Assembly (NCBI GenBank): GCA_021158525.1
Contig: JAGGUL010000031.1
Location: forward strand, 6,955-70,954
Origin: Candidatus Hydrothermota bacterium
GTDB lineage: Bacteria > Hydrothermota > Hydrothermia > B15-G9 > DRBW01
Reading direction: 5' to 3'
DNA length: 64,000 nt
Shown: in pieces, positions 3,620 to 13,700 of the stretch
Numbering within the stretch: the first letter of the stretch is position 1
Layout of the letters: every line of letters starts with the position of its first letter
The notes under the pieces: model-generated
Databases searched by the model: none
The model's input: the letters and a program-made list of their open reading frames with translations, nothing else
What the model was told of the DNA's origin: nothing
Made by a program: the position numbers and the translations under genes

Positions 3620-4522
3620 TCAAGAAGCCTGGTGAACCACAAGGACATCGGCCCTCGACGCTCTCAGAACTTTCTCCGTTATGCTACCCATGAACAGCCT
3701 CTTGAGGCCCGATTGCCCTCTTTTCCCCATTATTACCAGGTCTGCCCTTTCCGAAGCCTCGGCTATGTTCTTGTCGGCATCGCCCTTTTTGACCTCAGGA
3801 ACGGCCCCAGACAGGCCGAGATCGGCGAGCCAGTCGGTCAGCCTCTTCTCTATCTCTGCCCTCAGCTTTTCCTCGCTCCTGTCGAGCTCGATTTTGCTCT
3901 CCGAGGAAAGGGCGAGTTTGGCGAAATCCGGCATTACATAAAGGGCCCTGACCTTCGACTGAAGCTTATCGGCGAAATAAGCTGCCCATAGGGCCGCTTT
4001 CTTTGAGTTCTCCGAAAAATCGACAGCGAGGAGTATCTCCTGAAATCCATCGGCTCTGTCCTCGAGCTTCTTGACGACCAGCACCGGAAAATCGGCGCCC
4101 CTTATTATTCCCTCAGAAATCCCGCCCAGCGAGAGAAACTTGGGGAGATCCGAATATCCGTGCGAGCCTATAATTCCCATGTCAGCTCCGATCCGCTCTG
4201 CATAGGAAAGGTACCCTTCCTTGGGATTTCCGGTCAAGACGAAGACATCCACTTCCCTGACGCCGTCGGCCTTCAGTTTCTCCGCGAGCTTGAGCAGGGA
4301 CTCCTCGGCCTGTTTCTCGAGTTCTTCCTCGATTGAGAATGAAGTCCAGCCCGATATGATGCCTTCAGGATCGAGGGGAAGCTCCAGGGGCGGGACGATA
4401 TGGACAAGGTGCACCGCAGAGTCAAAAGCCTTCCCCAGCTGGGAGGCCACATGAACCAAAGGGTCGGTGAAGGTAGAAAAATCGATACCCACGAGGATCT
4501 TTTTGACATTAATTTCTGTCAT
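3620..4522 (-). CDS. Universal stress protein, tandem UspA domains
   Basis: 300 aa with two UspA-like halves. Each ends in an ATP-binding-type motif (VLVVKK..., GSHGYSDLPKFLSLGGISEGIIRGADFPVLVV and VIMGKRGQSGLKRLFMGSITEKVLRASRADVLVV). Confidence 0.7.
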   Translation of the reverse strand: MTEINVKKILVGIDFSTFTDPLVHVASQLGKAFDSAVHLVHIVPPLELPLDPEGIISGWTSFSIEEELEKQAEESLLKLAEKLKADGVREVDVFVLTGNPKEGYLSYAERIGADMGIIGSHGYSDLPKFLSLGGISEGIIRGADFPVLVVKKLEDRADGFQEILLAVDFSENSKKAALWAAYFADKLQSKVRALYVMPDFAKLALSSESKIELDRSEEKLRAEIEKRLTDWLADLGLSGAVPEVKKGDADKNIAEASERADLVIMGKRGQSGLKRLFMGSITEKVLRASRADVLVVHQAS

Positions 4523-4659
4523 AATTTCCTCCCTTCAAAATTTTTACGGACAGGAATCCGGAGAGCCCGGGGCCCCGAGTTGAGAGCCCAGATCTGGATA
4601 AGTTCTTCACGTTAAAATTCTAAAGGATGGCCTTTAAAATGACAATGAGGGCATAGATT

Positions 4660-5112
4660 TCAGCGAAGGAAGGCGAGAAAGGCGAAGATGGCCGATAGAC
4701 CCGAGAGGGCAAGGACAAAGTAGATGAGCATTATCGCCCTTTTGATCGATCGCCTGTATTCCTCCCCCATCGATTCGAGACGCCCGGATAGCTCTTCGAG
4801 GCGTTTCAGCGCTTCTCCGGTGACGTTCTCGAGGTCATCGAGCTTCCCCATGGAAACGTCAAGAGCCTCCTCAGATCTCTCGAGTTTCTCTACGATCTCG
4901 GGCCCCTTCAACCCGAGGAAACCATCCACAACTTTAAAATGTCCCCGCGCCACTTCCTCGAGCATGGAAACGATATTTTTCAGGCTTTCCCTTACATCTC
5001 TGAGGTTATCGGAGGTCGTCTTAAAAAGGTCGATCTCTGCCTTCAGCTTCACCAGGGTTTCAGCGAGACTTCTCGCAATCTCCTCGGCCTTGAGAAAATT
5101 TTCCCTGCCCAT
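4660..5112 (-). CDS. Hypothetical coiled-coil protein with a C-terminal membrane anchor
   Basis: 150 aa with heptad-like charged repeats, then a hydrophobic tail (IMLIYFVLALSGLSAIFAFLAFL). I recognise no family. Confidence 0.35.
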   Translation of the reverse strand: MGRENFLKAEEIARSLAETLVKLKAEIDLFKTTSDNLRDVRESLKNIVSMLEEVARGHFKVVDGFLGLKGPEIVEKLERSEEALDVSMGKLDDLENVTGEALKRLEELSGRLESMGEEYRRSIKRAIMLIYFVLALSGLSAIFAFLAFLR

Positions 5113-5152: not shown

Positions 5153-8100
5153 TCATCGGGACAAAATGCCTTCACACAGCTTACCCAGCCTGGAAAGAAG
5201 CTCCCAGGCTGGGATCTCGGAGAGGTCATCGGGAAGTCTCTCTATCCACTTCCTGAGCGACGATCGGGAGCTCTCCGATGCCACGTCCATCATCAAGCGT
5301 AATGCGAACTCTTCATCCCTTTCGGCGATGGCTCTGAGAGCCCAGACTCCGAAATCAACCACTTCCTCATCGCTCCTTGCATATCTCTCGACGGCATTCT
5401 TCAGTGAGGCCAGGAAATCCTCGCGGGCAGTCTCCCTGTCACCCTCCCTGCAGTAGATCTCGGAGATGGCTCTCAACATGAGAAGGGCCGGGTGATCGGG
5501 GTAGCTCTCCAGATAACGGATAACCTGCCCCCTGAGCTCGGCTGCGTCGTTCAGAGACCTGATTTTCCCGAAAAGGTCCCTGCACTTCTGAAATCCGACA
5601 TCGGGAGATGTTATTATATCCTCAAGGTCCTCTGTGAACTCCGTGGCCTCCAGATAGCGCAAAATGCGGTCCCGAATATCCCTGTCGGTGGGGCGACCCT
5701 CGCACAGGAGCAGCATCTCCTGCAACGCCCTCCTTCTGCTTCGCTCTATCACGTCGTATATGAAATTCAAAAGAAGCCCGATCACTCCCATGACAAAATC
5801 GACGTAGGGAAGATGTAGCAAGCTCCTGGCCTTCCCTTCCTCCACCTCCCTCCTCGAGTGAAGGTAGCTCTCTATATATTTGCCGTAGGTCTCGATTATC
5901 TTCTCCCTGTCGTACCCCGAGAGATAAACGGTGAAGATATTCCTTGAGTAATCGATGGTATAATCTGCCACGACGCCTATTAATAGCAGGCGGTGAAGCG
6001 CCTTCTCTATGGCAGGCCTCCTTTCTTCGTCGGCATGAAGGAGCTTCTTGCCTTCCATCGAAATATCCTCGAGCTCTCCGATTACCTTTCTGATCTCCTC
6101 CTTTTCGCTTTTTATACCCCTGAAAGATCTGGTGTGAAGATACAGCACTCTGGTTACGTCGTCATTATCGTCCCATTTCAGCTTCTCCAGCTGGCGCTGG
6201 ATCTCCTCAACGAGCGTATTGGGATCGAGAAGGAATCGGGACCTGCCCGGGTTATCCACGGAAACCATGATCGTGCAATAGGCCTTCTTTCTGTCCCTGC
6301 CCGCCCTGCCGGCCTCCTGATAGAATGCCTCTATGGAGGGCGGAAGGCCGTAATGTACGGTGAAGCGGATGTTTGGTTTATCGATTCCCATACCGAAGGC
6401 CTTTGTGCAAACGAGGAGCGGGATCTCGTTTCTCTTGAATTCCCTGAGCACCCTGCTCTTATAATCCCTGTATTCCTCTGGATCGCGCCCCTTCGGCTCC
6501 TTCCCGCTGTAGATGTCTGCGGGTATCCCGAGCTCCCTCCGAATGTAATCGGCTACCCCCTCTACGCCAAATTCACCGTTGACGTGCAGACAGAAAATAA
6601 GACCCGAATGGGTATCTTTGCCTCGCGGGACGTATAGTTCTTCCGTGCTCAAGCCGAAAAGGGAGGGCAGTTTCCTCATCAGGTAGTCCCTGAGAACCGC
6701 AGGCTTGGCCGCGGATTTCGAATGGATCACGGAGAATCTGAGCTCGGGCCTGTCGAAGGTTCTGGGAGTGATTATGGCCTCGAAATCCTCGATCCCGAGC
6801 TCCCTCTGGATGTCCTTGAGGACGGCGCGCGAGGCGGTCCCCGTCAGGGCGAGAAGGGGCGGCGTCTTCCTGAAAGACCGGCAGTACTCGCGGCTCGTCC
6901 TTCCTATGTTCAGATAGGCCGTCCTGAAATCATGCCCCCATTCGGAAACGCAGTGTGCCTCATCCACCACAATGAGGGCGATGGGCGTGTGTTCGGTCAG
7001 AGACCTGAGGGAATTCCTGAATTCCTGGGTCTGGAACCGCTCAGGAGCGACAAAGGCAAATATATACTCCCCTTTCCCAAAAAGAGAAAGAGCCCGCGCC
7101 CTGTGTTCGGGGCTCTCGAGCTGGCTTGTAATGACTATGCAGCGGCCTATCCCGGCCGCTGACAGGTTATCTATCTGATCTTCCATGAGCGAGATAATAG
7201 GGTCTATCACCACTGTCCTGCCCGGCAGCAACATGGAAGCAAGCTGGTACACCAGGGATTTCCCCGCTCCGGTGGGCAAAAGGAGCAGGGTGTCCCTGCC
7301 TGACATCGCCCTCTTTATCCCCTCAAACTGTCCCTCCCAGAAATCCTCCTTTCGGAAGAGGTAGCGCAGAAAATAGCGCAGGTCCTCGATCGACGGTTCT
7401 TCAAGGTCCCTGATCAGCGGAGAGACCGGAAAAGATCTATGGGCTATGTGAAATGGAAAGTAGGCATCGCCCAATTCTATCGTGGGAAGCCCGGGGTTAT
7501 CGCTGCCCGTGAAGGAAACGAATATCGCGTTTTCCGAGAGGGGGATCCTGCCTTCTTGTATGAGTTCCACCTTAACCTGCGGGATCGGCTCTCTCATTGA
7601 GTAGAAACTCAACAGCCTTGCAAATGTCTCCGCGAAGTCAAAAGCGGCCTCCTCGGCCAGAAAAATCGCCTCGTCGTCATCGAAGAGCCCTGTTCTGTGC
7701 AGATCGGTGTAGATCCTCCACTCCCTGTTTTCCCCAAGGGTCAAAAACCCCTCTGAGATCCCCAGGAAGAGGGCAAATTGCAGCTCGTGGGCAAACTTGA
7801 AGGAATAGGCAAGCCTCGCGAGACCCAGAGGAGGTCTCGATGTCCCCGAAAGCAGACCTCTGATCTCCCCGAGCAGGCCGTACTTCTCTGCAATATCATC
7901 GGCATCCATCTCCATCAGGTCCCGGGCTTTTATTCGAAGGACCTGGTAGCCAGCCCTGGCGAGATCATCATATTTTTTCTCCTCATCGATGGGGGTCCTG
8001 CCCTCTATCTCCACGGCCAGGGGATTCCAGATAAGGGGGTGGAAGAAAGCGAAGTCCACCCTCTGCAATTCCCTCACCCGCGTCGCTGTCTCCTCGTCTA

Positions 8101-8578
8101 TGAGGCTGGAAAGGGAAATTCCCGGAACTACGAACTGAACGAAGTTTCGGCCAAAAACGTAGGGACAAACCTCACCGTAAAAAATAGCTTCTTCAGTCCT
8201 GTCGAAATCCCCGGGATCTCCGCTTCTCTCGTAGCCGGAGAGAAAGGCCGAAAGATACGGATCAGCTTTCAGCTCTGTCCCATCTCCAAACCTCTCCAAA
8301 AGCTCCCCCTCAAGAGAGGGAGACAGAAGAGTGATCCTTCCGCGGGTCAGGATCTTCTCGAGAACCGACAGAACCTGTTTTGTCTTCTCGTCGAGAAAGG
8401 AACCTCCTCTGTCGGGATAATCGATCCGCCACTGGGCAAGGGCATTCAGAAGCCTCTCGTCGATCCCTCCTGCATTGAGGTACTCGAGGATCGTTGCGGG
8501 CACGGCTGCGCTCTCCACAAACCGAACCTTCTTATCCCTTCTCCTGCTCGAAGCCTTTATCGTTCTCGGAAAAAACAT
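5153..8578 (-). CDS. RecQ-family DEAD/DEAH-box helicase with an N-terminal Vsr/DUF559-like (PD-(D/E)XK) nuclease domain and a long C-terminal helical domain
   Basis: 1141 aa. Helicase motif I is LLLLPTGAGKSLVYQL, motif II is VVDEAHCVSEWGHDFR, and motif VI is EAGRAGRD, all of RecQ type. The N-terminus carries a DUF559-type signature (VDFAFF...LAVEIEGRTP...YDDLARAGYQVLRIKARDL). No RQC or HRDC signature is evident after the core. Confidence 0.7.
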   Translation of the reverse strand: MFFPRTIKASSRRRDKKVRFVESAAVPATILEYLNAGGIDERLLNALAQWRIDYPDRGGSFLDEKTKQVLSVLEKILTRGRITLLSPSLEGELLERFGDGTELKADPYLSAFLSGYERSGDPGDFDRTEEAIFYGEVCPYVFGRNFVQFVVPGISLSSLIDEETATRVRELQRVDFAFFHPLIWNPLAVEIEGRTPIDEEKKYDDLARAGYQVLRIKARDLMEMDADDIAEKYGLLGEIRGLLSGTSRPPLGLARLAYSFKFAHELQFALFLGISEGFLTLGENREWRIYTDLHRTGLFDDDEAIFLAEEAAFDFAETFARLLSFYSMREPIPQVKVELIQEGRIPLSENAIFVSFTGSDNPGLPTIELGDAYFPFHIAHRSFPVSPLIRDLEEPSIEDLRYFLRYLFRKEDFWEGQFEGIKRAMSGRDTLLLLPTGAGKSLVYQLASMLLPGRTVVIDPIISLMEDQIDNLSAAGIGRCIVITSQLESPEHRARALSLFGKGEYIFAFVAPERFQTQEFRNSLRSLTEHTPIALIVVDEAHCVSEWGHDFRTAYLNIGRTSREYCRSFRKTPPLLALTGTASRAVLKDIQRELGIEDFEAIITPRTFDRPELRFSVIHSKSAAKPAVLRDYLMRKLPSLFGLSTEELYVPRGKDTHSGLIFCLHVNGEFGVEGVADYIRRELGIPADIYSGKEPKGRDPEEYRDYKSRVLREFKRNEIPLLVCTKAFGMGIDKPNIRFTVHYGLPPSIEAFYQEAGRAGRDRKKAYCTIMVSVDNPGRSRFLLDPNTLVEEIQRQLEKLKWDDNDDVTRVLYLHTRSFRGIKSEKEEIRKVIGELEDISMEGKKLLHADEERRPAIEKALHRLLLIGVVADYTIDYSRNIFTVYLSGYDREKIIETYGKYIESYLHSRREVEEGKARSLLHLPYVDFVMGVIGLLLNFIYDVIERSRRRALQEMLLLCEGRPTDRDIRDRILRYLEATEFTEDLEDIITSPDVGFQKCRDLFGKIRSLNDAAELRGQVIRYLESYPDHPALLMLRAISEIYCREGDRETAREDFLASLKNAVERYARSDEEVVDFGVWALRAIAERDEEFALRLMMDVASESSRSSLRKWIERLPDDLSEIPAWELLSRLGKLCEGILSR

Positions 8579-8797
8579 GACTCATATATCCTGATTTTCT
8601 GGCTATCTCCTCACTCACGCTATTCTATTCAAACTTCTATCTGCTGTCAACTCGATCAGAGCGCCGCCTGCTTCCCTCCAATGGATCTCCGGAACAGACA
8701 GCCTGGCAATCGAGAGCCCTTCCCTTCAGATTGAAATCTGCCATATGAGGGGGCCTTTAAAATTGACTATCTCAAGCCCCGAACTTAAAATAGGCAC

Positions 8798-10237
8798 ATG
8801 GAACTTCATCGGCTCCCCATACATGAGCTCCACGGCCTCCTCAGGAAAGGAGAGGTAAAGGTCTCCGAGATCCTCGAGGATGTCATAACCGTTATCGAAG
8901 AGAGGGAAAAGGAGATCAACGTCTATATCAGCCTCTTTCTCGAGGAGGCCCGGGAGAAGGCACTGGAACTGGATGAGAGGATCAACAGCGACATACACTA
9001 CCTCTTCGGAATCCCTGTCGCCGTGAAGGACAACATCGTCATGAATGTGGGTGAAACCACCTGCGCTTCCAGGATACTTCTGGGATACAAAGCCCCCTAT
9101 ACGGCGACAGCGGTGAAAAAGCTCACGGACAAAAACGCCATCATCACGGGGAAAACCAATCTCGATGAGTTCGCTATGGGCTCCACCGGTGAGTACTCTC
9201 ATTTCGGCCCCACCAGAAACCCCTTGGCACCCGAACGGGTGACCGGCGGTTCCTCAAGCGGTTCGGCTGCAGCCGTGGCTGCAGGGGAGGCGATAGCGGC
9301 CCTGGGCTCCGATACGGGGGGATCGGTCCGTCTGCCGGCTGCTTACACCGGCACTGTTGGCTTTAAACCTACCTACGGCCGTGTTTCCCGCTACGGCCTT
9401 GTAGCTTTTGCCTCTTCACTTGATCAGATCTCGGTCATAACCCGGGACGTGAAAGACGCTGCGATAATGTTCACGGCTATCTCCGGATTCGACCCCCACG
9501 ACTCCACCTCGGCGAAATTCGAGGTTCCTTCTTTCGATGAGATCTTCTCCCAATCCCCCAGGGGATTCAAAGTGGGACTTCCCTCCGAATATTTTGTCGA
9601 GGGAATAGAACCGGAGATAAGGGACAGGGTTCTCAAAGCTGCCGAACTGCTCGCACAAAACGGGTTCACCGTGAAGGAAATATCCATGCCCCACACGAAG
9701 TACGCCGTCGCGGTCTATTACCTGATAGCCACAAGCGAGGCTTCCTCGAATCTCGCCCGGTACGATGGTGTACGTTACGGCTTCAGAGCACCCGATGCCG
9801 ACGACCTCGATTCTCTCTATGAGCTGACCCGTACCGGCGGCTTCGGCGAGGAGGTCAAGCGAAGAATCTTGCTGGGCACCTTCGCCCTGTCGGCCGGCTA
9901 CTACGAGGCATACTACCTCAAAGCCCAAAAGGCCCGTCGCCTCATCAGGGAAGATTTCGACAGGGCCTTCGAGGATGTGGACCTGATTCTGGCGCCCACC
10001 CAGCCCGCTCCTCCACCCCTCATCGGAGAGAAGATAGAAGATCCACTTTCCGTTTATCTCCTCGACATCTACACTGTGACGGCAAACCTGGCTGGTCTGC
10101 CCGCCATATCCATACCCTGTGACAGGACGGAAGATGGATTACCTATCGGCCTTCAGTTCATAGGAAGGGCCTTTGATGAGAAAACCCTGCTCAGGGCGGC
10201 CGCCAGGGCGGAGTCTATTTTCGCTTTTCGTCCTTGA
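8798..10237 (+). CDS. gatA: Glutamyl-tRNA(Gln) amidotransferase subunit A
   Basis: 479 aa with the amidase signature (GGSSSGSAAAVAAGEAIAALGSDTGGSVRLPAAYTG) and a typical GatA N-terminus (HELHGLLRKGEVKVSEI). Confidence 0.85.
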   Translation: MELHRLPIHELHGLLRKGEVKVSEILEDVITVIEEREKEINVYISLFLEEAREKALELDERINSDIHYLFGIPVAVKDNIVMNVGETTCASRILLGYKAPYTATAVKKLTDKNAIITGKTNLDEFAMGSTGEYSHFGPTRNPLAPERVTGGSSSGSAAAVAAGEAIAALGSDTGGSVRLPAAYTGTVGFKPTYGRVSRYGLVAFASSLDQISVITRDVKDAAIMFTAISGFDPHDSTSAKFEVPSFDEIFSQSPRGFKVGLPSEYFVEGIEPEIRDRVLKAAELLAQNGFTVKEISMPHTKYAVAVYYLIATSEASSNLARYDGVRYGFRAPDADDLDSLYELTRTGGFGEEVKRRILLGTFALSAGYYEAYYLKAQKARRLIREDFDRAFEDVDLILAPTQPAPPPLIGEKIEDPLSVYLLDIYTVTANLAGLPAISIPCDRTEDGLPIGLQFIGRAFDEKTLLRAAARAESIFAFRP

Positions 10238-10667
10238 AAAGCTCCTTCTGGCACTCGGAGCAATAGCCATAAACGTTGAAGGAATACCTGCTTACCTTGA
10301 AATTTCTTTCCCTGGCTATTTCGTCCACGACCTTTTCTATGAGGTCGGACTTGAATTCCTCTATTTTCCCACATCTGAGACAGATCAGGTGATTGTGGGA
10401 CTCAAGTCCGAGAATGAACTCGTAAAATTTCTTACCCCTTCCAAAGTCATGCTCCTCGATTATGTGGTTCTCCACAAGAAGGTTGAGAGTCCTGTACACG
10501 GTGGCCCTGGATATCTGCACCCTGTCCTTCAAACTCTCGTAAATATCCTGGGCGCTGAAATGAGACCTCGTGGAAAATATCTTTTTTGCGAGGGCTTCCC
10601 TCTGCTTTGTGAACTTCAAGCCTTTCTCCTTCAGAATGTCCCGAAAAACTCTAAGTGCTGATCGCAT
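10215..10667 (-). CDS. fur: Fur-family transcriptional regulator
   Basis: 150 aa with a winged-helix N-terminus and metal-site motifs (HDHLICLRCGKIEEF ... CSEC). It is divergent from the GGDEF-STAND gene. Confidence 0.8.
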   Translation of the reverse strand: MRSALRVFRDILKEKGLKFTKQREALAKKIFSTRSHFSAQDIYESLKDRVQISRATVYRTLNLLVENHIIEEHDFGRGKKFYEFILGLESHNHLICLRCGKIEEFKSDLIEKVVDEIARERNFKVSRYSFNVYGYCSECQKELFKDEKRK

Positions 10668-10740
10668 AAGGGAAATTTAACATCACACCTTTTCCTTGTC
10701 AAGGGTTCGCGTATTAATTTAAAATAACATTCTAAACCAC

Positions 10741-13700
10741 ATGATGGACACAACTGGAAAATTCACGAGCGCTGCCCTGCTCGATGATCTGACGGGGCTC
10801 TATAACAGGAGGTACTTCTACCTGCGCCTCGATGAGGAGATAAAGAGGTCCAGCAGGTATGGAAGGCCCTTCTGCCTTCTCCTGATGGATCTCGATAACT
10901 TCAAGCTCATAAATGACTCCTTCGGGCACCTCAGGGGCGACAGGGTGCTGGCGGAGTTCGCGAGGCTACTCAGGGAATCCGTGAGGGAAACCGACATAGC
11001 CTGCCGCTATGGGGGCGACGAGTTCGCACTGATTCTCCCCGAGACCGACAGAAAATCCTCGCTGAAAGTTGCCAATAAAATAATGGAAGCACTGAAGAAA
11101 ACCTATTTCGGGGATGATATGCCCCTGAGACTGTCCATCTCTATCGGGATCTCCTCATATCCTGAAGACGGAAACACACCCGAAGAGCTCTTCAACGCGT
11201 CGGACCACGCTCTCTATTTTGCAAAAAGAGAAGGCGGGAACAGAGTAAAGTTCGTGGAGAAAAGAGAGATGCCCGCACAGGAGACGGGCCTGTATCTCTC
11301 GCCGAAGTTCACCGGAAGAGATGACGAACTGGAGTCCCTGAAAAAGTTCTTCGTCAAAGCCCTTCAGAGAAAGACAACAACGGTGGTGATATCGGGCGAG
11401 GCCGGCGTCGGAAAAACGCGCCTTGCCAGAGAATTCCTGAAAGTCGCGAGCCTCCTGGGTGCCGAGATTCTGAAGGGGAAATGCTACGATTTCACGAAGG
11501 ACATCCCCTATCAGCCCATCAAGGAGGCTCTCGCCACTTTTTCAGAGATAGATCCCCTCGAGATCTACAGCATCATCGAGGAGATGCCCGTTCTGATACG
11601 TTCTGAGGTGCTCAAGATTTTGCCTTTTCTTGACATAACCAGGCTGAAGCTCTCCTCGGAACAGATAAAAACGGGCAGAGAGCCCGACGACAAGTGGAGG
11701 CTCTTCGGAGGTATAAAGGAACTCTTCGAGGGGCTCGAGCGGAAGAGGCCTCTCGTCCTCTTCTTCGATGACATCCACTGGGCCGACGAGGCGAGCCTCG
11801 AGCTCATCTCATTCCTAGCACGAAGCATCGAAAACAAGAGGATTCTCTTCCTGCTCGCCTTCAGAGAGGGCGAGAGGGAGAAAAACCCTCTCAGGAGCTT
11901 CCTCAACAGCTTCACCAAGGAGAACAACTACCACGAGATTCACCTCACGAGGCTCAAGGAGGAAGATGTCTCCAGGATGCTCAAGAGCATCCTGGGATTC
12001 AACGCTCCCGCCGAGCTCGTGAATTATCTCTACACCGAAACCGAGGGCAATCCCTTCTTCATCGTGGAGTATGTCCGCAGGATGGCTGACGAGGGGACCA
12101 TCTCTGAGATCAAAAAGGGATCTTTCCAGGTCGAAACCATAAAGAAAACAATCCCTCCTGGCATCAAGGACATAATCCTGGCTCGTATAGCACCCTTACG
12201 AGACATAACCAAGAGGATCCTGAGGATAGCTTCCGTTATCGGCGAGGAAATAGATTTTAACGTCCTCCTGGCGGTCTCCGGGATAAACGAGGGGTTCCTC
12301 TTTGATGTGCTCGACGAGCTTTTAAAATTGAAAATACTCCGCGAGGACCTCAGACTCGGCACCGAGGTATATAGCTTTACCCACGGCAAAATTCGAGATG
12401 TCGTGTATGAGGATATGCCCCATTCCCTCAGAAAGACATTGCACAGGAAAATAGGAAATACCCTGGAAGAGATGAGCCCCGATGCCGAACAGATCGCGGA
12501 GGAGCTGGCGCACCACTTTCTGCAGGCCAGAGAAGAGGAGAAGGCACTGAAATACCTCATGATGTCAGCAAGAAAGGCGGAAAAACTTTACGCTTTCGAA
12601 AACGCTCTCTCTCACTATGAGAAAGCTCTCACCCTCATTCCTCCCTCAAGAAAGGAGCGCCTTGATATCTACATGAGCATGATTCCCCTGCTCCACGTCC
12701 TCGGCAAGAGGAAGAGGGAAAAGTTCATTCTGGAGAAGGCCTTTGCCCTCGCCGACGAGAAAGACGAGCGCTATCGCGAGTTGCTCAGGCACCGAATCAA
12801 GTACCTGATCTCCCTTTCCAGCTATCACGAAGCAAAAGAACTGTGCGAAAGCCTTCTCAACCTGGAAAAGCGCGCAGGAAAGAGCCCCGAGTACGCGGAG
12901 ACCCTCATGCTTCTCGGGAAGGTCCACTACCTTCAGGCTTACTACGACACAGCCCTGAAAGCTTTCGAGGAGGCCGCTGAGATATGGAAAGAGCTGGGAG
13001 ACAACTCGAGCTACGCAAAAACTTTAACACAGACAGCGAGGATACTGAACAAGCGCGGGCAATCGAGAAAATCCACAGAATACCTCAGCAGGGCCTTCGA
13101 GGTTCTCCAGAGGGCCGGGGACAGAAGAGGAATGGCCGAGATTTACTGCGAACAGGGCATTATTCACCTCGATCTGTCGGAGTTCGGGAAGTCCAGGGAG
13201 TTCTTCCAGAAAGCCCATGAACTTTACACTGAGGTCGGCGACAAGGAAGGAGAGGCAAGGGCCCTTCACCTTGAAGGCAATTCGATCCTGAGCGTTTCCG
13301 ATTACGAAGAAGCCCTCTCGAAGTTCGAGAGGGCTCTGGAGATAAGAAAAGCAATAGATGACAAGAGGGGCATGGCAGCGTCCCTCGCCAACATGGGACT
13401 CATATACCAGAGCACAGGGAACAACGAAAAGGCCATAGAGTATTACCGCTCTGCGGCTGCTATAGCGGAGGAGATCGGCGACAGGGATAGCCTGCAGGTG
13501 ATCCTCAACAACATGGGCACGATATACCTGGATGAGTCCAACCTCGGGGAAGCCCGAAAGAGCCTGAACAAGGCCCTCAAGATCGCCCGCGAGATCAAGG
13601 ACAGATCAATGGAATCCACAGTACTGATAAACCTGGGCAACATCGCCTGGCAAAAGGGGAAACTTGACGAGGCCGAAAAGGCTTTTCTCGATGCCCTCAA

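Follow-up and report, generated by a model that had tools for sequence, protein, structure and literature searches.

A candidate membrane-tethered helicase-nuclease defence module and its derived copy in Candidatus Hydrothermae

Described systems closest to the locus

Helicase-nuclease fusions recur in prokaryotic immunity, including Hhe, Nhi, Hna, DdmDE and the Type I and Type III restriction-modification (R-M) systems. In Hhe, a helicase of the SF1/DUF4011 type carries its Vsr domain at the C-terminus, and there is no partner gene. This single-gene system of a helicase and a Vsr endonuclease was experimentally demonstrated to be anti-phage, and mutation of its nuclease site abolishes defence (Gao et al. 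2020). By analogy, Hhe sets a precedent for helicases with a Vsr domain acting as anti-phage effectors. Here, we analyzed a helicase locus in a 64,000-nucleotide stretch of DNA from a Candidatus Hydrothermota bacterium (contig JAGGUL010000031.1), referred to as the window. The ORF at 5153..8578 on the minus strand encodes a protein identical to MCD6086709.1 of a Candidatus Hydrothermae MAG, which is annotated in the database as 'ATP-dependent DNA helicase RecQ'. Its length of 1141 aa is as given by the first-pass annotation. The family to which it belongs, like Hhe, joins a helicase to a Vsr-type endonuclease in a single chain, but its motor is RecQ-like SF2 and its nuclease is N-terminal. No PADLOC model, including that of Hhe, matched the N-terminal 400-480 aa of either the window protein or a canonical member at E<=1.

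With the RecQ family (TIGR00614; E. coli RecQ), the family shares the SF2 core with all motifs, including motif 0 and the loop HCxSxWGHDFR, and, in the AF2 model, a winged helix following the core. Unlike RecQ, the family protein is about twice as large, carries a roughly 400-aa N-terminal module and a TPR-like C-terminus, has an obligate membrane partner, and lacks the Zn-binding Cys cluster and, by sequence, RQC or HRDC. PsyrTA/RqlHI are also two-gene modules with a RecQ-like helicase as the large protein. However, PsyrT has neither a Vsr-fold N-terminus nor the C-terminal module of the family, and PsyrA/RqlI is a soluble nucleotide-binding protein, whereas the family partner is a tail-anchored coiled-coil. 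A full-length PsyrT helicase with a PsyrA/RqlI partner was not found at the locus. The best PADLOC matches of the window protein were the DpdF models of the 7-deazaguanine Dpd restriction cluster (294 bits), which cover the helicase core. With the NCBIfam DpdF model the protein reached 147.5 bits, short of the cutoff of 550; the N- and C-termini differ from those of DpdF, and no dpd genes were found within the window or the homologous loci. Zorya and Kiwa resemble the family by analogy only, in that a membrane-embedded component would work together with a soluble effector, a helicase or nuclease, that acts on DNA entering the cell; there is no homology, and the family partner is a single-pass tail-anchored coiled-coil rather than a ZorAB motor or KwaA. 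PADLOC 2.0 contains no model for the family, and a literature search for a RecQ/Vsr/DUF559 helicase architecture, including in defence, found no description. Neither source yielded a RecQ-type motor combined with a Vsr nuclease at its N-terminus and an obligate partner that is tail-anchored.

Domain organization of the large protein

The window protein comprises, in order, an N1 domain, a Vsr/DUF559-fold domain, a middle domain, a RecQ-like SF2 core, a winged helix and a TPR-like solenoid. All coordinates given for its parts are on the minus strand. The SF2 core (aa 396-790; 6209..7393) has all motifs intact. The Walker A motif PTGAGKS (residues 435-441; 7256-7276), DEAH (residues 539-542; 6953-6964), the RecQ aromatic-rich loop HCVSEWGHDFR and QEAGRAGRD (residues 754-762) are invariant across the family in alignments of 27-113 sequences. 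Residues 404-784 scored 268.8 bits against NCBIfam recQ_fam TIGR00614 (cutoff 219.8), which, together with the motifs, confirms the earlier assignment of a RecQ-like SF2 core from TGAGKS, DEAH and QEAGRAGRD. The score against the bacterial RecQ equivalog TIGR01389 was 276.5 bits, far below its cutoff of 640.2.

The core is followed by the family-defining C-terminal module (aa 791-1141; 5156..6208), delineated by alignment and the AF2 model. It is built of a helical hairpin, a winged helix (about aa 840-890), a long helix and a TPR-like alpha-solenoid (about aa 1005-1141), the last containing the invariant motif RGQxxRYLESYPDHP of the family alignments. The window protein possesses this winged helix and TPR-like module together with the RYLESYPDHP motif. 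Pfam searches of the window protein gave no match to RQC (PF09382), RecQ_Zn_bind (PF16124) or HRDC (PF00570), and the family consensus has no Cys cluster after motif VI. The first-pass annotation had described a helical C-terminus lacking RQC and HRDC; their absence holds, but the region is a winged helix followed by an alpha-solenoid, the winged-helix fold being visible only in the AF2 model and not by sequence.

The N1 domain (aa 1-125; 8204..8578) is family-specific and highly conserved, with QWRxD, KILxRG, P87 and E90 invariant, and a fold search gave no known match. In most homologues N1 is preceded by Zn_ribbon_Top1, which is missing from the window protein. An annotation or frameshift artefact is ruled out as the cause, as no remnant of the ribbon exists upstream of the window helicase: stops occur in all three frames and tblastn gave no match. 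The middle domain (aa 233-395; 7394..7882) is an alpha/beta domain conserved in the family, with W287, D292, D314, Y326 and F356 as conserved residues. It had no sequence match and no confident fold match, and with a dN/dS of 0.18 it is the fastest-evolving part of the protein.

Between N1 and the middle domain lies a Vsr/DUF559-type PD-(D/E)xK-like nuclease fold (aa 126-232; 7883..8203). Pfam profile searches of window residues 1-260, 240-400 and 790-1141 gave no matches at E<=10, so the nuclease fold was assigned from homologues and structure. PF04480 (DUF559) likewise did not match the window N-terminus even at E<=10, whereas homologues scored 39-45 bits (cutoff 20.6). The DUF559/Vsr-type motif order noted earlier (VDFAFF, AVEIEGR and DDLARAGYQVLRIKARDL, residues 174-220) matches the DUF559 motif of the homologues column for column, but the window protein itself fails the DUF559 HMM. 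The region has the Vsr-type restriction-endonuclease fold and lacks the full Vsr-type catalytic set (the Asp of Vsr D51, the acidic ExD, H69 and the distal D97).

The difference lies in an eroded active-site segment (aa 188-204; 7967..8017; local pLDDT about 69). Aligned with the family, it reads AVEIEGRTPI----DEEKKYD against the consensus (I/V)VEIDGEQHxxHxxSDxERD, the changes being D192E, H196P, a 4-aa deletion, D200E and R203Y. The ExDGxxH motif is present in 104 of 113 and 49 of 51 family members. D175, E190 and D204 of the catalytic set are retained in the window protein, and H196P is predicted to have removed the general base. Retention of the catalytic residues, which the first-pass annotation had proposed to check, is partial: the predicted general-base His is lost, as are three further near-invariant positions. 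The roles of the catalytic residues (Mg-binding Asp, general-base His) are taken from Vsr and I-Bth0305I (PMC3239194), and the presumed effect of losing the His is an extrapolation from these two enzymes. Compared with DUF559, Vsr and EDxHD homing endonucleases (3hrl, 1cw0, 3r3p), the window protein lacks a His at the position of Vsr H69 or I-Bth0305I H213 and is not recognized by the Pfam model. Some residual nuclease activity through D175, E190, E192 and D204 is conceivable, because to our knowledge no DUF559 enzyme has so far been dissected biochemically.

The predicted membrane partner and the genomic context of the family

Starting 40 nt past the helicase stop, a coiled-coil/TM ORF (4660..5112, minus strand) encodes the 150-aa protein MCD6086708.1, matched by the partner profile at E 2.7e-46. 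The partner is built of a conserved N-terminal helical head of roughly 85 aa, a variable coiled-coil stalk and a C-terminal TM anchor ending in LR, and is tail-anchored. It matched no Pfam or PADLOC family. Sub-threshold Pfam matches to CheZ, XhlA, BAR, Nuf2 and others were inconsistent between members and were discarded as coiled-coil noise, as were PADLOC matches to LmuB, Cas11b and JetC. The best sigma-70-like promoter match of the whole region (8622..8650, minus strand; 11/12, TTGACA-17-TAGAAT) is located 44 bp upstream of the helicase ATG, and a second (4617-4645, minus strand) lies between the partner and the Usp gene; both are consensus matches only. The position of the second is consistent with the helicase and partner forming a bicistronic unit. 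The Usp gene at 3620-4522 and the membrane coiled-coil protein are the flanking genes that the first-pass annotation had named.

The partner profile matched the ORF immediately downstream of the helicase in all 13 curated loci (E 1e-27 to 1e-54), among which the R. marinus partner was matched at E 7.5e-10. In metagenomes, the partner was downstream on the same strand in 73 of 73 assessable loci, in most of them at a distance of -10 to +40 nt relative to the stop of the helicase, and in many loci of this spacing survey the stop and start codons overlap. The lists of helicase and partner matches have contig sizes in common. The partner alignment was too divergent for DNA search patterns, and the C-terminal helicase alignment was used instead; a genome-contig search with the full-length alignment used generic RecQ motifs (HCVSEWGH, AFGMGIDK), and only L008 and L009 matched beyond the core. 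Nine loci contain a third gene encoding a membrane-anchored DEDD-type (RNase_H_2) exonuclease. We propose, from sequence, that the C-terminal TPR-like module is the docking site for the partner, and we infer that the two interact and localize to the membrane.

The constant pairing contradicts the earlier view of a lone single-polypeptide system. A stand-alone nuclease-helicase similar to Nhi, Hna or DdmD, with an active DUF559 nuclease and incidental neighbours, would fit a nuclease fold and a helicase in one chain, but with the partner found at every curated and assessable locus, the predicted general-base His and three near-invariant residues lost and the DUF559 HMM failed, we consider it extremely unlikely. 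Tight two-gene coupling with overlapping codons would also suit a toxin-antitoxin (TA)-like or abortive-infection addiction module as in PsyrTA/RqlHI, in which the partner sequesters a genotoxic helicase-nuclease at the membrane until a trigger arrives. The core scores 227.8 bits with the PADLOC model of PsyrT, the pair frequently resides on mobile genetic elements with other TA pairs adjacent, and the RqlH/RqlI literature, as far as it is cited in PMC9122126, lends support. However, the PsyrT match is limited to the generic core of the helicase, at model positions 8-372 of 689, and the tail-anchored partner, which belongs to no Pfam or PADLOC family, is unrelated to PsyrA/RqlI. We regard this module as improbable; it overlaps with the explanation we favour, because its function would still be defence or addiction.

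The family comprises 1133 representatives at 50% clustering, all with the C-terminal module, and the helicase-nuclease with its partner constitutes a widespread, previously undescribed two-gene module. Canonical members reside in defence islands, integrative elements and plasmids, surrounded by R-M, McrBC, GmrSD, BREX, Hma, AbiE and HEPN/MNT genes and integrases, as seen in individual loci and in sets of 107 and 137 neighbours scanned with PADLOC and Pfam. In L007, a mesophilic metagenomic locus, the pair is at 8155-12145. Neighbours include Type III R-M and McrBC (L007), R.HinP1I and MTases (L002), DUF1156/DUF499-HEPN and MNT/HEPN (L091), GIY-YIG, SNase, PLD and recombinase (L092), BrxL, AAA_15 and Mrr (L093), PemK and MNT/HEPN (L096), and TIR, AIPR, PLD-SNF2 and Eco57I (L097). 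Mobility-related neighbours are an integrase (L003), Prim-Pol and a serine recombinase (L005), McrBC with RepB/ParB (L098) and transposases (L099), and in cultured Rhodothermus marinus DSM 4252 the pair (RMAR_RS14285/14280) is carried by plasmid pRMAR01 with TnpB/CARF nearby. Not every canonical locus has such surroundings: L001 and part of A8 lie among ordinary metabolic genes. Residence in defence islands is a correlation as a sign of a defence role.

The same surroundings bear on whether the pair processes the DNA of mobile elements rather than defending against them, for example by helping plasmids or ICEs to replicate, transfer or become established at the membrane. The Rhodothermus plasmid copy near RepA, the copies near RepB/ParB, Prim-Pol or serine recombinases, and the membrane anchoring of two of the three possible components fit such a role. 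Nevertheless, no consistent link to relaxases, T4SS or replication genes was observed, and many loci lie in chromosomal islands otherwise made up of defence genes. Neither 50,697 phage genomes nor 2.9 million viral contigs nor PHROGs contained a match to the family-specific parts, which also led us to reject a phage origin of the family. Mobile-element DNA processing is therefore a very unlikely function.

The Hydrothermae copy and its proposed mode of action

The Hydrothermae copies occupy a fixed syntenic position between GatA and Usp/V-ATPase genes, and in the window lineage no mobile or defence neighbours accompany the pair. The expected location of homologues in defence islands thus applies to canonical members but not to the Hydrothermae copies, and the proposal at first pass of an undescribed defence or repair factor is supported in part. 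Zn_ribbon_Top1 and an intact ExDGxxH motif are absent in both the window protein and P0002; therefore, the window copy is a derived member of the family, vertically inherited in the Hydrothermae lineage. In Hydrothermae, loss of the Zn-ribbon and the His goes together with a core-genome position, and P0074/P0077 may be another such case. Its N-terminal divergence is disproportionate. The dN/dS was 0.07-0.18 in every domain, and a decaying nuclease domain was rejected, its value of 0.10 being similar to the rest of the protein. The motor, C-terminal module and partner are intact and under purifying selection.

Vertical inheritance beside GatA, Fur, Usp and V-ATPase genes, stable synteny lacking mobile or defence neighbours, and purifying selection on all domains, the motif-eroded nuclease fold included, would fit a housekeeping repair or recombination factor. 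Such a RecQ paralogue would use an accessory nuclease-like DNA-binding domain on the host chromosome, for instance where forks stall or where replication or segregation takes place attached to the membrane, with the partner as a localization factor; the core score above the TIGR00614 curated cutoff and the presence of RmuC and PriA near some homologues point the same way. However, the family occurs rarely and patchily, spanning more than 10 phyla with identities of only 46-55%, has no RecQ Zn-binding or HRDC modules, and falls far short of the recQ equivalog cutoff (276 versus 640 bits). Its neighbours are integrases, recombinases, transposases and R-M/McrBC/BREX/Hma/TA clusters, some copies are on plasmids, and the same protein (P0015) occurs with varying downstream neighbours. 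We therefore judge a repair function unlikely.

The explanation we favour, at somewhat better than even odds, is that the family constitutes a new candidate defence system, a helicase-nuclease tethered to the membrane, of which the window holds a derived and probably nuclease-impaired copy. In the canonical form, the large protein comprises a Top1-type zinc ribbon, N1, the Vsr/DUF559 endonuclease, the middle domain, a RecQ-like 3'-5' SF2 motor, the winged helix and the TPR-like solenoid. It is translationally coupled to the small tail-anchored coiled-coil membrane protein, with the membrane-anchored DEDD (RNase_H_2) exonuclease added in some loci. The conserved partner head would dock on the TPR-like C-terminus and keep the enzyme on the inside of the membrane, where the ATP-driven motor and the Vsr-type nuclease may attack incoming foreign DNA as anti-phage or anti-plasmid defence. 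As methyltransferases show no consistent linkage to the module, self and foreign DNA would be told apart spatially or through a trigger and not by methylation. Probably a nuclease-impaired descendant of this candidate system, the window copy most likely works as a translocase tethered to the membrane, its nuclease chemistry impaired or altered.

More tentatively, and with less than even confidence, the family may represent a new class of defence system in which a RecQ-like motor and Vsr-type nuclease, sometimes with a membrane-anchored DEDD exonuclease, are held by the stalk protein on the cytoplasmic side of the membrane and sense foreign DNA by where and how it enters and not by modification. 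The Hydrothermae copy would then be a natural example of such a system becoming fixed in the core genome, an immune helicase domesticated after loss of the DNA-end-binding zinc ribbon and the nuclease general base.

Members of the family are annotated as 'RecQ' and 'hypothetical protein' and are therefore miscounted as housekeeping repair genes. As a case of membrane-coupled DNA surveillance, the family can be put to the test, with a plasmid-borne copy available in cultured R. marinus DSM 4252. The window copy, eroded and devoid of the Zn-ribbon yet under purifying selection at a core-genome site, permits a comparison of 'armed' and 'disarmed' forms.

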